NCBI GenBank assembly: GCA_963763075.1
Contig: CAVXNF010000006.1
Span: 1,278 to 65,277, forward strand
Length of the DNA stretch: 64,000 nucleotides
Origin: an uncultured Chloroflexia bacterium
Lineage (GTDB): Bacteria; Chloroflexota; Limnocylindria; Limnocylindrales; CSP1-4
Direction: 5' to 3'
Made by a program: the position numbers and the translations under genes. A model generated the notes under the pieces. The model did no database searches. It saw only the letters and a program-made list of their open reading frames with translations, and was not told the origin of the DNA. This document shows, piece by piece, positions 20,098 through 42,639 of the stretch; position 1 is the stretch's first letter, and every line of letters begins with the position of its first letter.

Positions 20098-21125
20098 GCG
20101 ACGCGATCGACCTCGCGGCACTCGCGCGTGACGCCGTCCCGGCACCCGTCCTGGCCCGGCTGACCGCGGCCCGCAACGCGCTCGTCGTGAGCCACGAGAA
20201 CCCGGATGCCGACACGCTCGGCGCGGGGCTCGGCGTGTGCGCGATCCTCGAGGCGTGCGGGGCGCAGGCCACGGCCGTGTCGACGGACCCGGTGCCGCCG
20301 CTGTACGCGTTCATCGCGGGCGTGGAGCGGTTCCGTACGGACCCCGACCCTGCGCAGACCTACGACCTGCTGGTGCTCGTCGACTGCGGCTCGGCGGACC
20401 GCGTGGGGGCGGTCGCCCAGCGGCACCCGGAGCTGTTCGCCACGCTGCCGCGGGTGATCATCGACCACCACGCCTCGAACGCCGACGGCGGTGCCGCGGA
20501 CTGGATCGAGCCGGGCTCGGCCGCGACCTGCGAGATGGTGACGCTCCTCGCGGCGCGGCTCGGCGTCCCGCTCGACGCCGGCGACGGCACGCTCGCCGCG
20601 GCGCTGATGGCCGGGATCGTGATGGACACCGCGACCTTCGCCCATCCCAACGCCACGCCCCGGACGCTGGCCGTGTCGTCGGCGCTCGTCGCTGCCGGCG
20701 CGCCGCTGTCGGACATCTCGCGCCGGCTCTACCGCACCAAGCCCGACGCCCAGCTCCGCCTGTTCGGGCGGGTGCTGGACCGGCTCCAGACGTCGCCCGA
20801 CGGCCGGGTCGTATGGTCGACCCTCGCCAACGCCGACTACCCCGCGACGGGCTCGATCCGAGCCCACTCCGAGGGGATCATCGACCTCCTCGCGCAGTCC
20901 GACACGGCCGAGGTCGCGATGCTGCTCAAGGAGGGCGAGGACGACGGCACGCGCCTGTCGGTGCGCACGAAGCCCGGCGGCGTGGACGCCACGGTGCTGA
21001 CCGGCGCGTTCGGCGGCGGCGGCCATGCCCGAGCCGCCGGCGCCTCGCTGCCGCTGCCGATGGCCGAGGCGGTGACCGCGGTCCGCGCCGTGGCCGAGCG
21101 CCTCGCGGCCGAGGTCAGCCGGTGA
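20094..21125 (+). CDS. nrnA: DHH/DHHA1 oligoribonuclease / pAp phosphatase (NrnA family)
   Basis: SHENPDAD, VDC, IIDHH, GIVMDT, SVRTK, FGGGGHARAAG; between rbfA and truB. Confidence 0.92.
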   Translation: MSDAIDLAALARDAVPAPVLARLTAARNALVVSHENPDADTLGAGLGVCAILEACGAQATAVSTDPVPPLYAFIAGVERFRTDPDPAQTYDLLVLVDCGSADRVGAVAQRHPELFATLPRVIIDHHASNADGGAADWIEPGSAATCEMVTLLAARLGVPLDAGDGTLAAALMAGIVMDTATFAHPNATPRTLAVSSALVAAGAPLSDISRRLYRTKPDAQLRLFGRVLDRLQTSPDGRVVWSTLANADYPATGSIRAHSEGIIDLLAQSDTAEVAMLLKEGEDDGTRLSVRTKPGGVDATVLTGAFGGGGHARAAGASLPLPMAEAVTAVRAVAERLAAEVSR

Positions 21126-34412: not shown

Positions 34413-34682
34413 GTGCCGCTCGCGCGGGAGAAGAAGCAAGAGGTCATCACCCAGTTCGCCGTCAAGGACGGTGACACCGGGTCGCCCGAGGTCCAGGTCG
34501 CGCTCCTGACGGAGCGGATCCGCGATCTCAACGGGCACCTCGCGCGCTTTCCGAAGGATCATCATTCCCGCCGCGGCCTCCTCAAGCTCGTGGGTCAGCG
34601 CCGACGCCTTCTTGCGTATCTGATCAAGAAGGACGCCACTCGCTATCGAGCCGTGATCGGCTCGCTCGGACTCCGCCGCTAG
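34413..34682 (+). CDS. rpsO: 30S ribosomal protein S15
   Basis: GTG after GGAGG; [40 protein letters not shown]. Confidence 0.99.
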
Positions 34683-34695
34683 GACTCGCCGCAGC

Positions 34696-34725
34696 AGACC
34701 CCGGACGTTGATCCGGGGTCTTGTG
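34696..34725 (+). terminator. Hairpin between rpsO and pnp
   Basis: AGACCCCGGA-cgttga-TCCGGGGTCT followed by TGTG. Confidence 0.6.
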
Positions 34726-34809
34726 CATCCGGCTCCTGGCCTCGAGGCCCCGGCCCTACCCGCCGCAGGTCGCTCCTTCCACCTTCACGACCAAGGAGGT
34801 CGTTCACAC

Positions 34810-37395
34810 GTGCCCACTCCCACCACGCTCGAGATCGAGTTCGGCGGTCGAACCCTGATCCTGGAGACCGGCCGCCTGGCCGGCAACGCCGGCGGCGCCG
34901 TCACCGCCCGCTACGGCGACTCGATGGTCCTCGGGACCGCGAACCGCTCCGAGCCCCGCCCGGGTCTCGACTTCTTCCCGCTCACCGTCGATTTCGAGGA
35001 GCGGATGTACGCGGCCGGCAAGATCCCCGGCGGCTTCATCAAGCGCGAGGGCCGCGCCTCCGAGGCCGCGACGCTCGCGGCGCGCCTCACCGACCGCCCG
35101 ATCCGCCCGCTGTTCCCCGAGGGGTACAAGGACGACGTCCAGATCGTCATCACGACGCTCTCGACGGACCACGAGAACGAGCTCGACGTGCTTGGCACGA
35201 TCGCCGCGTCCGCGGCGCTGACGATCAGCGAGATCCCGTTCCAGGGCCCGATCGGCGCCGTCCACGTCGGCTACATCGACGGCGAGTTCGTCCTCAACCC
35301 GACCACGAGCCAGCTCGTGGAGTCGCAGCTCGACCTCGTCGTCGCCGGCACCCGCGACGCGATCATGATGGTCGAGGCCGGCGTCAAGATCCTGCCCGAG
35401 GACGTGATGGCCGAGGCGATCATGTTCGCCCACCGGTCGATCGCGCCGCTCATCGACCTCCAGGAGGAGCTGCGCGAGAAGGTCGGCAAGGCCAAGCGCC
35501 TGCCGTACCTCGAGCCGGCCACCGACTCCGTGCTCACCTTCGCCGAGCTGGCCAAGGCCGGCGGCGAGTTCGTCGTCGTCGACGTCGAGACCACCGGCAC
35601 GGACCCGAAGATGGCCGACCTCGTCGAGGTCGCCGCGGTCCGCGTCAAGGGCGGCAAGATCACCGACCGCTGGTCCACGTACGTGAACCCGGGCCGGCCG
35701 ATCGTCGGCAACCAGATGCACGGCATCACCGACAAGGACGTCAAGGGCGCCCCGACCCCGGCCGAGGCCGCCCGCAAGGCGCTCGACTTCGTGGGCGACG
35801 CGCTGTTCGTCGGCCACTCGGTGGGCTTCGACATCGCGTTCATCGAGGCTGCGCTGGGCGACGGCACCCGCATCGAGCAGGGCCGCTACCTGGACACGCT
35901 GGTGATCGCGCGCGACGGCTACCCCGAGCTCGAGAACTACAAGCTGCCGACCCTGGCGAACTTCTTCGGGGTCGAGCTCAAGGAGAGCCACCGCGCCCTC
36001 CCGGACGCCGAGGCGACCGCGACCCTGCTGAACTGGTTCGGCAACGACCTGCCCGGCCGGATCGCCGACCTCAAGGCCGGCATCGCGACCGCGGTCCGCG
36101 CCACGCGCACCGACAAGGCCGAGTCCGAGAAGCTGCTCGAGGCGGCCCGCCGCCAGGCGCGCTTCAGCAAGAGCCTGTTCGGGCTCGTGCAGAAGAAGAC
36201 CGTCCGTGAGCTCGTCCTCGGCGAGGGCCTCCGCATGGACGGCCGCGCCACCGACGAGATCCGCCCGATCTCGGTCGAGGTCGGCCTGCTCCCGCGTGCG
36301 CACGGCTCCGGCCTGTTCACCCGCGGCCAGACCCAGGCCCTGACGGTCGCCACGCTCGGCGCGTCCTCGGACGTCCAGCGGATCGACACGATCAGCGCGG
36401 AGACCGAGAAGCGGTACCTCCACCACTACAACTTCCCGCCCTACAGCACCGGTGAGAACAAGCCGATGCGCGGGCCCAGCCGCCGCGACATCGGGCACGG
36501 CAACCTCGCCGCCCGGGCGCTGCTGCCGGTCCTCCCGACGCACGACGAGTTCCCGTACGTCATCCGCCTCGTGTCCGAGGTCGTCGCCGGCAACGGCTCG
36601 ACGTCCATGGCCTCGACGTGCGGCTCGACCCTCGCCCTGATGGACGCGGGCGTGCCGATCTCGGCGCCGGTCGCCGGTGCCGCGATGGGCCTCGTGCTCG
36701 ACAGCGAGACCGGCAACTTCGTGGTCCTCACCGACATCCTCGGCAAGGAGGACTCGATCGGTGACATGGACTTCAAGGTCACCGGGACCACGAAGGGCAT
36801 CACCGCCCTCCAGATGGACATCAAGGTCAAGGGCATCGACGAGCGGGTCATCCGCGAGGGGCTCAAGCAGGCCCTCGCCGCCCGCCTGTTCATCCTCGAC
36901 AAGATGACCGAGGTCCTGCCGAACGCGCGCGAGGAGATGTCCGACTTCGCGCCGCGGATCACGACGATCAAGATCAACCCCGAGAAGATCCGCGAGATCA
37001 TCGGCAAGGGTGGGTCGATGATCCGGAAGATCCAGGAAGAGACCAGCACCGAGATCAACGTCGAGGACGACGGCACCGTGGAGATCGCGGCCGTGTCCGG
37101 GGAGAACGCCCGCAAGGCGATCACCTGGATCGAGAGCCTGACCCGCGACGTCGAGGTCGGCGCGCTGTACCTCGGCAAGGTCACCCGGCTCATGAACTTC
37201 GGCGCCTTCGTCGAGATCCTGCCGGGCAAGGAGGGGCTCGTCCGGATCGGCGAGCTCGCCGACTACCACGTGCCGTCCGTCGAGGACGTCGTGTCGGTCG
37301 GGGACGAGGTCATGGTGGTGGTCACCGAGATCGACCGCCAGGGCCGCGTCAACCTCTCCCGCAAGGCGGCGATGCAGCGGCATCTCGCCAAGTAA
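34810..37395 (+). CDS. pnp: Polyribonucleotide nucleotidyltransferase with an inserted DEDDh exonuclease domain
   Basis: PH1 (FFPLTVDFEERMYAAGKIPGGFIKREGR), PH2 (RAHGSGLFTRGQTQ, EDSIGDMDFKV), KH (IIGKGG), S1; insert VVVDVETTG / HSVGFD / HRALPDA; single uninterrupted 861-aa ORF. Confidence 0.98.
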   Translation: MPTPTTLEIEFGGRTLILETGRLAGNAGGAVTARYGDSMVLGTANRSEPRPGLDFFPLTVDFEERMYAAGKIPGGFIKREGRASEAATLAARLTDRPIRPLFPEGYKDDVQIVITTLSTDHENELDVLGTIAASAALTISEIPFQGPIGAVHVGYIDGEFVLNPTTSQLVESQLDLVVAGTRDAIMMVEAGVKILPEDVMAEAIMFAHRSIAPLIDLQEELREKVGKAKRLPYLEPATDSVLTFAELAKAGGEFVVVDVETTGTDPKMADLVEVAAVRVKGGKITDRWSTYVNPGRPIVGNQMHGITDKDVKGAPTPAEAARKALDFVGDALFVGHSVGFDIAFIEAALGDGTRIEQGRYLDTLVIARDGYPELENYKLPTLANFFGVELKESHRALPDAEATATLLNWFGNDLPGRIADLKAGIATAVRATRTDKAESEKLLEAARRQARFSKSLFGLVQKKTVRELVLGEGLRMDGRATDEIRPISVEVGLLPRAHGSGLFTRGQTQALTVATLGASSDVQRIDTISAETEKRYLHHYNFPPYSTGENKPMRGPSRRDIGHGNLAARALLPVLPTHDEFPYVIRLVSEVVAGNGSTSMASTCGSTLALMDAGVPISAPVAGAAMGLVLDSETGNFVVLTDILGKEDSIGDMDFKVTGTTKGITALQMDIKVKGIDERVIREGLKQALAARLFILDKMTEVLPNAREEMSDFAPRITTIKINPEKIREIIGKGGSMIRKIQEETSTEINVEDDGTVEIAAVSGENARKAITWIESLTRDVEVGALYLGKVTRLMNFGAFVEILPGKEGLVRIGELADYHVPSVEDVVSVGDEVMVVVTEIDRQGRVNLSRKAAMQRHLAK

Positions 37396-37931: not shown

Positions 37932-37969
37932 ATAACAGCAATCCGTTGTGGTCTCATAAGAAATCATGA
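37932..37969. promoter_or_regulatory. Candidate LysR-binding site in the divergent intergenic region
   Basis: AT-rich patch; TCAT-N8-ATGA (37954-37969) contains T-N11-A and overlaps the LysR ATG; second ATAA at 37932. Confidence 0.5.
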
Positions 37970-38970
37970 CAACTGATTACTCCGTCGCCCCGCCGACGAG
38001 CCGCCGCGTCCTCCCGGACGCGCTCTCGGACCTCAGCCTCCGCCAGCTGCTCAGCTTCCGGGCCGTCGCGGACGAGGGCTCGTTCCACGGTGCCGCCGAC
38101 GCGCTGGACTACACGCAGTCGGCCGTCAGCCAGCACGTGATGGCCCTCGAGGCGGCGCTCGGCGTGCGCCTGTTCGACCGCGGCCGCGGCCGGCGGACCG
38201 TGGAGCTCACGGAGGCCGGCACGCTCCTGCTGCGCCACGTCGAGACGATCACCGACCGGCTCCAGGCGGCACGCGCGGACCTGCTCGCGTACGCGGCCGG
38301 GGAGACGGGCCGGCTCCGGATCGGCGTCTACCAGAGCATCGGCACCCGGATCCTGCCCGCGATCATCGGCCGCTTCAGCCAGGCCTGGCCCGGCGTCGAG
38401 GTCCAGCTCATGGAGGCCAACAGCGACGAGGGCCTGATGGACATGGTGGAGCCCGGCCGGCTCGACCTGACGTTCGGCGTCCTGCCGCTGCCCGAGGGCC
38501 CGTTCGACGGCGTCGAGCTCCTGTCCGACCCGTTCGTCCTCGTCGTGTCCGCGTCGTCGCCCCTCGCCGGGCGCCGTGAAGCCCCGCCGATCGCGCTGAT
38601 CGGGGAGCAGAAGCTCATCGGGTTCCGCTCGTGCCGGAGCACGCGCTGGGTCGAGAGCCAGCTCCGCGCCGCCGGCACGGAGCCCAACTTCGTGTTCCGC
38701 TCCGAGGACAACGGCACGGTCCAGGCGATGGCCGGCGCGGGCCTCGGCAGCGCGCTCGTGCCGCTGCTCGCGGTCGACACCTCGGACCCGCTGATCGCGA
38801 TCCTGCCGACGACCCTCGAGCCCCGCCGGATCGCGCTCATGTGGCACCGCGACCGGTATCGCTCGCCGGCCTCGCGCGAGTTCGTCGAGATCGCCCAGGC
38901 GGTGTGCGCGGAGCTCGCGACCGGCCTCCGGGCGACCCCGCCGGACCGGTCGGTGACGCCCGCTCGGACT
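37966..38970 (+). CDS. LysR family transcriptional regulator (end approximate, stop lost to an indel)
   Basis: LRQLLSFRAVADEGSFHGAADALDYTQSAVSQHVMALE..LG..LFDR, LTEAG, LRIG, AGLGSALVP. Confidence 0.92.
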
Positions 38971-39048
38971 GACCCCGCCGACACCCGTCGCGACCCCCGC
39001 CTGACCGCCGATGCGGCGTTCGCCGGAGGCGGAATCGGGAGGGCCCGC

Positions 39049-39057
39049 TGGTATACT
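39049..39057 (+). promoter_or_regulatory. Extended -10 promoter of asd, probably leaderless
   Basis: TGgTATACT, 6 nt before in-frame GTG 39064. Confidence 0.65.
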
Positions 39058-39063
39058 CCCGCG

Positions 39064-40180
39064 GTGCCCGACAACCTATCGCTAGCAGGTCGGACCGTGC
39101 CTCGAACCAGCCCGAACTCCCTCGTCGTCGCCGTCGTCGGTGCCACCGGCGCCGTCGGCCGGACGATGATCCAGGTCCTCCTCGAGAAGCAGCTCCCGAT
39201 CACCGAGCTGCGGCTCCTCGCGTCGGCGCGCAGCGCCGGGCGGGTCGTGAACGTGGGCGGCACGGACTACACCGTGGGCCTGGCGACGCCGGAGGCGTTC
39301 GAGGGGGTCGACATCGCGCTGTTCAGCGCCGGCGGCGGGACGAGCAAGGAGCTCGCGCCGGAGGCGGCGAAGCGCGGCTGCACGGTCATCGACAACTCGA
39401 GCGCGTGGCGCATGGACCCGGACGTGCCGCTCGTCGTGAGCCAGGTCAACCCCGGCGACCTCGAGGGCCACGAGGGGATCATCGCGAACCCGAACTGCTC
39501 GACGATGCAGCTGCTGCCGCCGCTGATGGCGCTGCGCGACGCGGTCGGGATCGAGCGCGTCGTCGTGGACACGTACCAGAGCGTCGCCGGGACCGGCCAC
39601 AAGGCGATCGTGGAGCTCGAGGAGCAGGTCAAGGCGCACGCCGAGGGCCGACCCAAGGTCGCCGAGATCTACCCGCACCCGATCGCGTTCAACGCCCTCC
39701 CGCACATCGACGTGTTCCTCGACAACGGGTACACGAAGGAGGAGTGGAAGGTCGTCACGGAGAGCCGCAAGATCCTCCACCTGCCCGACCTCCGGATCTC
39801 GTGCACGGCCGTCCGCGTGCCGGTGTTCATCAGCCACTCCGAGGCGGTCCACGTCGAGACCCGCGCCCCGATCACCCCGGCCGAGGCGCGCGCGCTGTTC
39901 GGCGGCGTCAAGGGCGTCGTCGTGCAGGACGACCCGGCCGCGAACGTGTACCCGCTGGCGACCGAGGCCGCCGGGCACGGACGAGATCTACGTCGGCCGG
40001 GTCCGCCAGGACCTGTCGATCGACGGCAACCGCGGGCTCGCCTTCTGGGTCGTGTCCGACAACCTGCGCAAGGGCGCGGCATCGAACGCCGTGGAGCTGG
40101 CCGAGGTGCTCGTCGAGCAGGGCTGGATCCGCAAGGCGAGCGAGCGCCAGCCGGTGGGAGCCGGGGGGCGCACCGCGTGA
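39064..40180 (+). CDS. asd: Aspartate-semialdehyde dehydrogenase (frameshift near 39977; alternative start 39097)
   Basis: VVGATGAVG, IDNSSAWRM, IIANPNCST, TYQSVAG, CTAVRVPV..SHSE, DNLRKGAA. Confidence 0.97.
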
Positions 40181-40934
40181 TGCGCGACGAGCGCCAGGCG
40201 GCGCTCGAGGTGATCGCGAGCGAGGTCCGGGCGTGCACGCAGTGCCGGCTGCACGAGACCCGGACGCTGGCCGTGCCCGGCGAGGGCGACCCTGATACCG
40301 AGGTCGTGTTCGTCGGCGAGGGCCCGGGCATGAACGAGGACCGCGAGGGCCGGCCGTTCGTCGGGCGAGCCGGCGGCATGCTCGTCCGGCTGCTGGGCAG
40401 CATCGGCTGGCAGCGCAACGACGTGTTCATCACCAACGTCGTGAAGTGCCGGCCGCCCGGCAACCGCGACCCCGAGGCGGACGAGATCGCCGCCTGCGCG
40501 CCGTACCTGCAGCGCCAGCTCCAGGTGCTCGACCCGGCCGTCGTCGTGACGCTGGGCCGGTTCTCGATGCAGGCGTTCATCCCCGGCGCCCGGATCGGCC
40601 AGGTCCACGGCACGCACCCACCCGGTCGATCCCGAGACCGGCGCCGCGGCGGCGCTCGCGTTCGCGATGTACCACCCCGCGGCGGCGCTGCGCTCGTCGG
40701 GGGTCGAGCAGACCAGCTTCGAGGACGTCGCCCGGGTACCCTCCGTGCTGCTCCGGGCCCGCGAGCTGCGCGCCGGTCGCCGGAGCCGGCCGAACCACCG
40801 CCGCGCCGCCCGTCACCCCCGCCGCGCCACCGACCGTCACCACCGCGCCCGCATCCCCGCCACGCCCTGAGACTCCCGCCGCCGTCGCGGCCGAACCGGC
40901 CCCCGACGACGCCTCCCAGCTCACCCTGTTCTGA
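40180..40934 (+). CDS. Family 4 uracil-DNA glycosylase with Pro/Ala tail (frameshifts near 40615 and 40785)
   Basis: CTQCRL, GEGPG..ED..GRPFVGRAG, NVVKCRPPGNR, MYHPAAAL. Confidence 0.93.
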
Positions 40935-40970
40935 CCCGCCACAAGACGAGCCACATGGACACCACCACCC

Positions 40971-42639
40971 ATGCCTGATCCCAACGTGCCGCTCCGCATC
41001 ATCCCGCTCGGCGGGGTGGGGGAGATCGGCAAGAACATGTACGTGTTCGAGTACGGCGACGACATCGTCGTCATCGACTGCGGCCTGATGTTCCCCGACG
41101 AGGAGATGTTCGGCATCGACCTCGTCGTCCCCGACGTGACGTTCCTCAAGGAGAACCGCCACAAGGTCCGGGCGTTCCTCATCACCCACGCCCACGAGGA
41201 CCACGTCGGCGGCCTGCCCTACGTCCTGCCCGAGTTCCCGGGCGTCCCCGTGTACGCGAGCACGCTCGCGCGCGGCCTCCTGGGCAACAAGATCAAGGAG
41301 CACAAGCTCCACAACAACCCGCTGCTCGCGCTCGAGCCGGGCGACGAGCTGGCGGTCGGGCCGTTCACGGTCGTCCCGTTCCGGATCGGCCACTCGATCC
41401 CGGACGCGATGGGCATCGCCCTCCGGACCCCGGTCGGGACCGTCGTCCACACCGGCGACTTCAAGTTCGACCACACCCCGGTCGACGGCAAGCTGAGCGA
41501 CTTCCACATCCTGGCGCGGCTCGGCGAGGAGGGCGTGATCGCGCTCCTGTCGGACTCGACGCGCGCCGAGAACCCGGGCTACACGCCCTCGGAGCGGATC
41601 GTGGGCGAGGCGTTCCGCGAGATCATGGAGCCGCTCGACGGCCGGGTGATCGTCGCCACCTTCGCCTCGAACATCGCGCGCATCCAGCAGGTGCTCGACG
41701 CCGCCGCCGACATGGGCCGCAAGACCGCGGTCATCGGCCGCTCGATGGAGCAGAACTTCCGGATCGCCACGGACCTCGGCTACCTCAAGTACCTGCCCTC
41801 GAACATCGTGGGCAAGGACAAGATCAAGGACATCCCCGGGCGACAAGCTGGTCATCGCGACGACCGGCGCCCAGGGCGAGCCGATGGCCGGCCTCGCGCG
41901 GATGGCGAACAACGACCACCGGTTCGTCGAGATCCAGCCGGGCGACACCGTGATCGTGTCGGCGAGCCCGATCCCGGGCAACGAGGAGTACGTCGCCCGG
42001 ACCATCGACAACCTGTTCAAGGCCGGCGCGAACGTGTACTACCACACGATCAAGCGCGCGCACGTCTCGGGCCATGCGAGCCAGGAGGAGCTCAAGCTGA
42101 TGCTCGGGCTCACCAAGCCGCGCTACTTCATCCCGATGCACGGCGAGTTCCGGATGCTCGTGCAGCACGGGCGGCTCGCGATCGAGACCGGGGTCCAGGC
42201 CGAGAACGTGTTCATCATCGAGAACGGCACGCCGATCGAGATCTTCGCCGACGGCAGCGCCCGCCGCGGGATGCCGGTCCCGGCCGGCTACGTGTACGTC
42301 GACGGGCTGTCGGTGGGCGAGGTGGGCGACATCGTCCTGCGCGACCGGCGCGCCCTCGCGAACGACGGGATGTTCATGATCGTCGTCCAGGTCGACAAGC
42401 AGACGGGACGCGTCGTCGGGCGGCCCGAGATCATCACCCGCGGGTTCGTGCACGGCAACGAGGACGACCCGATGATCGAGGAGGCGGTCCGCCGCATCCG
42501 GCAGGCCCTCGACCAGCCGGGCGATCGGATCAGCGAGGTCGCGATGATCAAGAGCCAGATCAAGGACAGCGTGTCGCGCTTCCTGTACGAGCAGACGAAG
42601 CGGCGGCCGATGGTCTTCCCGGTCGTGGTCGAGGTCTGA
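40971..42639 (+). CDS. rnj: Ribonuclease J (frameshift near 41830)
   Basis: PLGGVGEIGKN, THAHEDHVG, HSIPD, HTGDFK, FASNIAR, HVSGH, PMHGE. Confidence 0.97.

Follow-up and report, generated by a model that had tools for sequence, protein, structure and literature searches.

The pnp locus and its product

The subject of this report is a 64,000-nucleotide stretch of DNA (the window; positions 1,278 to 65,277 of contig CAVXNF010000006.1, assembly GCA_963763075.1) from an uncultured bacterium of the class Limnocylindria, phylum Chloroflexota, and in particular its pnp gene for polynucleotide phosphorylase (PNPase). PNPase is a phosphorolytic 3'-5' exoribonuclease ring that is fed via its KH and S1 domains. 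The pnp product of the window contains, in addition, a complete DnaQ-like DEDDh exonuclease domain set into the PNPase chain, and this protein is called the fusion below; its domains and the flanking features are given in Table 1. The gene is one open reading frame (ORF) with no internal stops, as the original prediction had read it, and starts with GTG. It is present once in its own genome, which is 70.7% complete, and follows rpsO at a distance of 127 nt in the canonical rpsO-pnp arrangement. The G+C content at third codon positions (GC3) was 0.97-0.99 in all segments of the ORF and the overall G+C was level across it, bearing out an earlier remark on uniform codon style; the insert is thus not compositionally foreign.

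Table 1. Features of the rpsO-pnp locus; positions are those of the window and residue numbers those of the pnp product.
Feature	Position	Strand	Basis
rpsO (ribosomal protein S15)	34413..34682	+	PF00312, 1.3e-34; directly upstream of pnp
10-bp G+C-rich hairpin (GACCCCGGA...UCCGGGGUC)	34696..34721	+	folding; just 3' of the rpsO stop, then UUGUG
Shine-Dalgarno sequence AAGGAGG	34793..34799	+	10 nt upstream of the pnp GTG start
pnp, 861 aa	34810..37395	+	Pfam and NCBIfam PNPase equivalog; single PNPase gene of the genome
PH1 core (RNase_PH + RNase_PH_C), aa 1-231	34810..35502	+	Pfam; alignment
Linker, poorly conserved, one predicted helix, aa 232-252	35503..35565	+	3/21 columns at least 95% conserved; helix 239-249
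Inserted DnaQ-like DEDDh 3'-5' exonuclease domain, aa 253-410	35566..36039	+	PF00929, 4.6e-27; pLDDT 80-95
Helical remainder, aa 411-472	36040..36225	+	secondary structure prediction; PF03726; hhalign
PH2 core with phosphorolytic site	36226..36924	+	Pfam; invariant residues
KH (aa 715-775) and S1 (aa 781-853), RNA-binding	36952..37368	+	PF00013, 3.3e-11; PF00575, 2.3e-18

A Pfam search of the product returned RNase_PH twice (1.1e-50), RNase_PH_C twice, RNase_T (PF00929), KH, and S1. The NCBIfam PNPase equivalog NF008805 scored 941.5 bits against a cut-off of 471, and the PNPase model TIGR03591 scored 938.9 against 525, each matching in two stretches on either side of the insert. The PH1 core closed with VGKAKR at about residue 231, within a residue or so of where it had been placed before (KVGKAKR, about residue 230). 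In PH2, residues R558, R559, H563, S597-S599, D648, D652, D654, and K656 were invariant across an alignment of 67 sequences; from the Escherichia coli enzyme we take these (RRxxxH, S-T/S-S, and D..D.D.K) to be phosphate-binding or catalytic. The GDMDFK motif lies at residue 651, and the earlier reading that EDSIGDMDFK is intact agrees with this invariance across the 67 homologues; the PNPase part of the fusion is predicted to be catalytically intact. Canonical PNPases (TIGR03591/NF008805; E. coli 3GCM and 7OGK, Caulobacter crescentus 4AM3, Streptomyces antibioticus 1E3H) share with the fusion PH1, PH2, KH, S1, the phosphorolytic site, and the rpsO-pnp operon, whereas the fusion has about 160 extra residues, amounting to a full DEDDh domain, between PH1 and a shortened alpha-helical (alpha) domain.

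The RNase_T match spans aa 255-407 and the entire profile (1-164 of 164; 96 bits against a cut-off of 24). The complete DEDDh set named in the original prediction was found in place: ExoI is VVVDVETTG at residue 255 (D258, 35581-35583; E260, 35587-35589), ExoII is HSVGFD at residue 336 (D341, 35830-35832), and ExoIII is HRALPDA at residue 394 (H394, 35989-35991; D399, 36004-36006), with the H-x4-D spacing.

The fold of this domain begins at FVVVDVETTG after the linker of about 20 residues. Beyond it, the PNPase helical model PF03726 matched only with profile positions 48-80 of 81, at aa 447-479, and at 19.9 bits it fell under its cut-off of 24.6. Alignment with hhalign against the canonical alpha domain recovered only aa 455-479 (94.6% probability) and detected no homology for aa 411-454. 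The alpha domain has become shorter and has diverged, and the insert is at its N-terminal edge. The proposal that the exonuclease is inserted at that domain thus holds as to place, but the alpha domain has not simply been replaced, its last helix (aa 455-479) being still homologous. An AlphaFold2 monomer built with 67 close homologues was good for about aa 100-480, with a predicted local distance difference test (pLDDT) score of 80-95 over about aa 230-480. In it, the ExoIII helix bearing H394 and D399 runs on as one long helix (396-431), which is followed by helices 436-450 and 454-472. Because the ExoIII helix is predicted to run into the helical part, the connection between the DEDDh and alpha domains is probably a rigid helical one. 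In PNPase the alpha domain stands on the face opposite KH and S1. Foldseek matched the model to ordinary PNPases only, with chains of up to 730 residues, and no solved PNPase with such an insert was among the matches.

Distribution and origin of the fusion

The class was sampled with 151 genomes: 101 from families f1 and f2 (the order of the window) and f4 (another order), and 50 from f3 and f5. A contiguous match to residues 1-861 was obtained in about 100 of the 101, one genome being without any pnp match and a few copies being cut at contig ends. The insert was found in none of the 50 f3/f5 genomes, nearly all of which gave the split match of a canonical PNPase of about 740-770 aa (one gave no match). 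The fusion is therefore limited to part of the class, namely three families in two orders. Outside the class, none of 177 other Chloroflexota genomes, from about 50 families, contained the insert, and the pnp match was always split.

A query comprising the junctions and the insert (aa 225-480) retrieved 1732 proteins, the best 120 of which were 73-100% identical, nearly all 858-864 aa long, and had the same domains. The fusion proteins are thus already in public databases, under generic names: their organisms are given as Candidatus Limnocylindrales or Chloroflexi, and the proteins as 'polyribonucleotide nucleotidyltransferase' or, misleadingly, as 'DNA polymerase III epsilon subunit family exonuclease'. 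The latter is the name that JGI gives to many intact fusions, which hides them from searches for PNPase. Among species-representative genomes, 546 stretches encode the junctions and insert, and the best 80 are from Chloroflexota/Limnocylindrales metagenome-assembled genomes (MAGs) except for three contigs of 1-2.5 kb that were assigned, probably wrongly, to bins of other taxa. Fragments of fused pnp lie on contigs of 1.3-2.3 kb (L059, L096, and L118) binned as Actinomycetota, Thermomicrobiales, and Verrucomicrobiia; they probably reflect binning contamination and not a spread of the fusion to other taxa. A comparison of the insert with 1.84 billion representative proteins yielded 55 matches at 1e-30 or better, mostly fragments of the same fusion. 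Two public predicted proteins, P0189 and P0139, were considered as a distant fusion lineage and rejected; they are frameshifted or garbled copies of the same family that had become separate cluster representatives.

In a tree of 123 DEDDh domains the inserts were monophyletic (support 100/97), and so were the fused PNPase cores in a tree made without the insert columns (100/100). Since insert and core each form one clade, we infer a single insertion event in the common ancestor of f1, f2, and f4. The same evidence disposes of the suspicion that the fusion is a chimeric assembly, or a mobile or intein-like insertion absent from the mature protein. That suspicion was not idle, as the window is probably from an error-prone long-read MAG in which several neighboring genes look frameshifted. 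However, the same architecture and the same in-frame junctions recur in over 100 assemblies that were made independently and come from several sources, which excludes misassembly; GC3 is uniform, RNase_T is the sole Pfam match in the insert and no intein or transposase motifs accompany it, and the insert and core trees are congruent. We regard the chance of an artefact as negligible. The close relatives sought by mapping the architecture on the phylogeny were thus present in practically every f1/f2/f4 genome. Full-text literature searches, for their part, brought up no paper in which PNPase is connected to Limnocylindria or to an inserted domain of the DEDD or DnaQ type, in line with the original prediction, which knew of no characterized example.

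Conservation of the exonuclease domain

The insert evolves faster than the PNPase cores: f1-f4 identity was 44-46% for the insert and 65-77% for PH1 and PH2. Nonetheless, D258 and E260 were kept in 106 of 107 full-length homologues and D341, H394, and D399 in every one, and 63 of the 158 insert columns were at least 95% conserved. Retention of the catalytic residues and of so many columns at such low identity argues for selection on catalysis, and not for a decaying passenger. We judge it close to certain that the fusion is genuine and that selection acts on it, and the DEDDh domain is quite probably an active nuclease. Catalytically dead DEDD domains exist elsewhere, and the faster evolution of the insert could be taken to mean that here too the fold was kept for nucleic-acid binding, regulation, or protein docking. 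The near-invariance of all five catalytic residues across two orders, together with the conserved columns, makes such a non-catalytic module very improbable.

Affinities of the exonuclease domain

The best sequence matches of the insert in the PDB were the PolC exonuclease (2p1j, 5.9e-22) and DinG (8zef, 8.2e-16), followed by Cas2-DEDDh and DnaQ. Among NCBIfam models, the highest scores were those of the PRK07883 DEDD exonucleases (147 bits), the DinG N-terminus (126-129), and PolC (123). Only the generic TIGR00573 exceeded its cut-off (78.8 against 71.5); the DNA polymerase III epsilon equivalogs remained well under theirs (TIGR01406, 77.9 against 222.7; NF004964, 82.4 against 236), and Orn and RNase T models were outside the 25 best families, the weakest of which scored 41 bits. 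The DinG models TIGR01407 and PRK08074 matched over their first 160 or so positions only, and the match did not extend into their helicase domains. On these profile scores the insert is a member of the DnaQ/PolC/DinG subgroup of DEDDh exonucleases. Among proteins other than PNPases, those nearest to it (identity up to 47-49%) are fusions of the DNA-repair type (FAN1_HTH-VRR_NUC-DEDDh, GIY-YIG, and BRCT).

PolC (2P1J, 9QPC) is thus the closest match of known structure, and its DEDDh domain is likewise enclosed by a second domain within a larger enzyme; its host, however, is a DNA polymerase and its function proofreading. The DEDDh-DinG proteins (Bacillus subtilis, Staphylococcus aureus, and Listeria monocytogenes; 8ZEF; TIGR01407/PRK08074; and those of the sister families described below) have a domain of the same subgroup, but the partner of the domain in the fusion is the PNPase ring and not an XPD/DinG helicase, and descent from DinG is not evident in the tree.

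Since the families closest to the insert act on DNA, its substrate may be DNA rather than RNA. The DEDDh domain would then process DNA 3' ends in repair, recombination, or replication-transcription conflicts, with PNPase as a scaffold and RNA decay unchanged. B. subtilis PNPase is reported to have a role in DNA repair. The list of relatives favors this alternative (PolC proofreading, DinG, GIY-YIG/Cho-like DEDD exonucleases, and FAN1_HTH-VRR_NUC-DEDDh), as does the biochemistry of DinG: the Listeria enzyme prefers DNA in vitro (PMC12774634), and that of B. subtilis degrades single-stranded DNA (ssDNA) (PMC12525004). Against it, the protein that houses the domain is an RNA-binding machine with KH and S1, encoded in an rpsO-pnp operon, and DinG exonucleases act on RNA too, in vivo. 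The Firmicutes DinG exonuclease trims 3' ends of unprocessed rRNA, the RNA strand of R-loops, and ssDNA, and Listeria DinG is a 3'-5' exoribonuclease that initiates the degradation of unprocessed rRNA. We consider a role as a DNA-end processor unlikely and are moderately inclined to believe that RNA is at least one physiological substrate of the domain.

Complementary presence of DEDDh-DinG

Among 31 good genomes of the class, PF00929 occurs about once per genome, as the pnp insert in fused genomes and as the N-terminus of a DEDDh-DinG/XPD helicase of about 890 aa in unfused ones. A query with whole DinG found a full-length ortholog in f3 and f5, whereas the fused genomes returned the pnp insert only (35-46% identity over query aa 5-161). 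With the helicase part as the query, a strong ortholog was found in 48 of 50 unfused genomes and in none of the 101 fused ones, two of which gave weak, non-orthologous matches. Helicase_C_2 (PF13307) was likewise present in 11/11 unfused and 0/20 fused genomes. The pnp insert is the sole DEDDh domain in 86 of the 101 fused genomes, and one genome has none. Beyond the identity already given, what the insert has in common with the class's own DinG exonuclease domains is that each is usually the single DEDDh domain of its genome.

Among 108 genomes of other Chloroflexota, at least 35, from many families, encode full-length DEDDh-DinG, whose presence is probably the older state in the phylum. As DinG is present in the sister families and absent from the fused ones, it was on the f1/f2/f4 branch that pnp gained a DEDDh domain and DEDDh-DinG vanished. 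We treat this complementarity as a lead, not as proof.

Examples of the sister DEDDh-DinG genes are L016:3238-5919 (+), L015:3318-5903 (+), and L017:1647-4172 (-). Their products have the Walker A sequence AGTGIGKS, a DEAH box, and a stretch with four cysteines (CPRRW ... C..C....C), a possible site for an Fe-S cluster; in this they presumably differ from DinG of the S. aureus type.

Other 3'-5' nucleases of the class

The RNB domain of RNase II and RNase R was absent from all 31 genomes, G000 included; because the whole class lacks it, its absence is uninformative as to fused versus unfused. No DEDDy domain (RNase D or PolA exonuclease) was found in the fused genomes, and weak PolA-type matches were found in 6 of 11 unfused ones, a result that is likewise uninformative. 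Most fused genomes have no stand-alone DEDDh gene of the kind to which RNase T and Orn belong. The predicted repertoire of 3'-5' nucleases in the class is thus very small, and PNPase is its only classical processive exoribonuclease.

This poverty might suggest that the insert fills a gap in nanoRNA turnover. PNPase leaves short oligonucleotides, and a DEDDh domain close in the chain to the PH2 core could hydrolyze these leftovers of 2-5 nt, as Orn or REXO2 does beside PNPase; the lack of a stand-alone Orn or RNase T in most fused genomes would fit. However, an NrnA-like DHH/DHHA1 gene (about 330-450 aa) occurs whether or not pnp is fused, in many cases at a distance of a few kb, and DHHA1 proteins (AlaRS, RecJ, and NrnA-like) number three per genome in both groups. 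No gap marks the fused lineages, and a nanoRNase gap thus does not explain the insert. Moreover, its best models are DnaQ, PolC, and DinG and not Orn or RNase T, and the unfused sisters cope without such a domain on PNPase. The suggestion in the original prediction that the insert finishes the short products of PNPase therefore found no comparative support, and we think it quite unlikely. The NrnA-like gene of the window is at about 20868-21107, some 14 kb upstream of pnp, and comparable loci near pnp in relatives include G011:C1:183531, G020:C5:782066, and G090:C1:1301176.

Proposed function

Our preferred interpretation, to which we assign a probability of about 0.5, is that the fusion carries an active hydrolytic 3'-5' exonuclease on PNPase that has assumed the role of the DinG exonuclease. 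A DEDDh domain of the DnaQ/PolC/DinG type would have been inserted once, in the ancestor of the three families, into the single housekeeping pnp of the rpsO-pnp operon, and would act there as a metal-dependent hydrolytic 3'-5' exonuclease. If the fusion forms the usual trimer, each particle would have three phosphorolytic sites, dependent on inorganic phosphate (Pi), and three hydrolytic ones. The insert would perform the tasks of the DinG exonuclease, that is, 3' trimming of unprocessed rRNA and removal of R-loop RNA and of ssDNA, physically coupled to PNPase, so that a DinG-like initiator chemistry would be built into PNPase in the fused lineages. The takeover is inferred because the insert is usually the sole DEDDh domain and DEDDh-DinG has gone. 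Taken by itself, the replacement of DinG-exonuclease function by the insert is possible, though on balance slightly doubtful.

Several observations weigh against this interpretation. In the maximum-likelihood tree the inserts fall outside the Chloroflexota DinG-DEDDh clade and have small stand-alone DEDDh proteins as their neighbors (support 94/70); the nearest of these proteins, P0252 and P0195, have uninformative names. Forcing the inserts to group with Chloroflexota DinG gave a tree 29 log-likelihood units worse, which the approximately unbiased (AU) test did not reject (p = 0.20), and taken together a quick tree, a careful tree, and the AU tests neither support nor reject the idea that the insert descends from the DinG of its own class. 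A second DEDDh gene is present in 14 of the 101 fused genomes, including 5 of the 6 from f2. Phylogenetically, gain of the insert and loss of DinG are one event (n = 1), and their association may be a coincidence. Some other Chloroflexota families that lack DinG also lack the insert, and the closest families of the insert are, as noted, DNA-acting enzymes. Finally, the AlphaFold2 model is poor outside aa 100-480, with a mean pLDDT of 65.6 and values below 50 for PH2 and S1.

As to the f2 genomes, which are about 1.1-1.4 Mb, their extra gene is a stand-alone 206-aa DEDDh ORF (PF00929, about 1e-15), as in L020 (G011:C2:301392-301853) and at G065:C5:11094-11555. It is divergent and lies far from the pnp insert on the tree.

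In concept only, the fusion resembles two systems that pair a PH ring with a hydrolytic 3'-5' nuclease, namely the eukaryotic exosome (the PH-like ring Exo9 with hydrolytic Rrp44 and the DEDD-family Rrp6) and human mitochondrial PNPase with REXO2. Unlike the exosome, the fusion has a ring predicted to be phosphorolytically competent, its hydrolytic domain is in the same polypeptide, and it has no homology to Rrp44. By analogy, it could be imagined as a single-polypeptide bacterial counterpart of the exosome, in which an active PH ring and three DEDDh sites with an absorbed DinG function would switch a 3' end between Pi-dependent and water-dependent chemistry on one particle, and would compensate for the lack of RNase II and RNase R. 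This fuller picture is unlikely to hold in all its parts.

Other features of the window

The hairpin between rpsO and pnp (Table 1) may act in attenuation or mark where the transcript is processed by an enzyme of the RNase III type; the entire 156-nt pnp leader folds at z = -1.7 only, and the hairpin alone is weak evidence. Downstream of pnp, a stop-free frame of 1040 codons (37966-41088) spans a LysR regulator (Pfam-confirmed for aa 1-312) and stretches resembling aspartate-semialdehyde dehydrogenase and a family-4 uracil-DNA glycosylase. This fits indel errors of a long-read MAG, stop-poor high-G+C sequence, or both. Many relatives of the window are themselves long-read 'MFD' MAGs.

Implications

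PNPase is among the best-studied enzymes of RNA decay, yet no characterized member is known to have a second catalytic nuclease domain. The fusion would surprise a specialist in RNA decay, although it is not a new category of enzyme. What the present analysis contributes anew is the limit of its distribution inside the class, the evidence for its single origin, its complementarity with DinG, and the negative result on nanoRNases. Hundreds of species in a soil and freshwater lineage that is abundant and uncultured have the fusion as a fixed trait, which makes it a natural experiment in combining phosphorolytic with hydrolytic chemistry at 3' ends. With DEDDh-DinG lost in complementary fashion, the function of the insert becomes a concrete, testable hypothesis, and this has a bearing on the RNA role lately reported for DinG exonucleases in rRNA quality control and at R-loops. 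More generally, the fusion shows how RNA turnover is organized in a lineage whose complement of 3'-5' nucleases is minimal.

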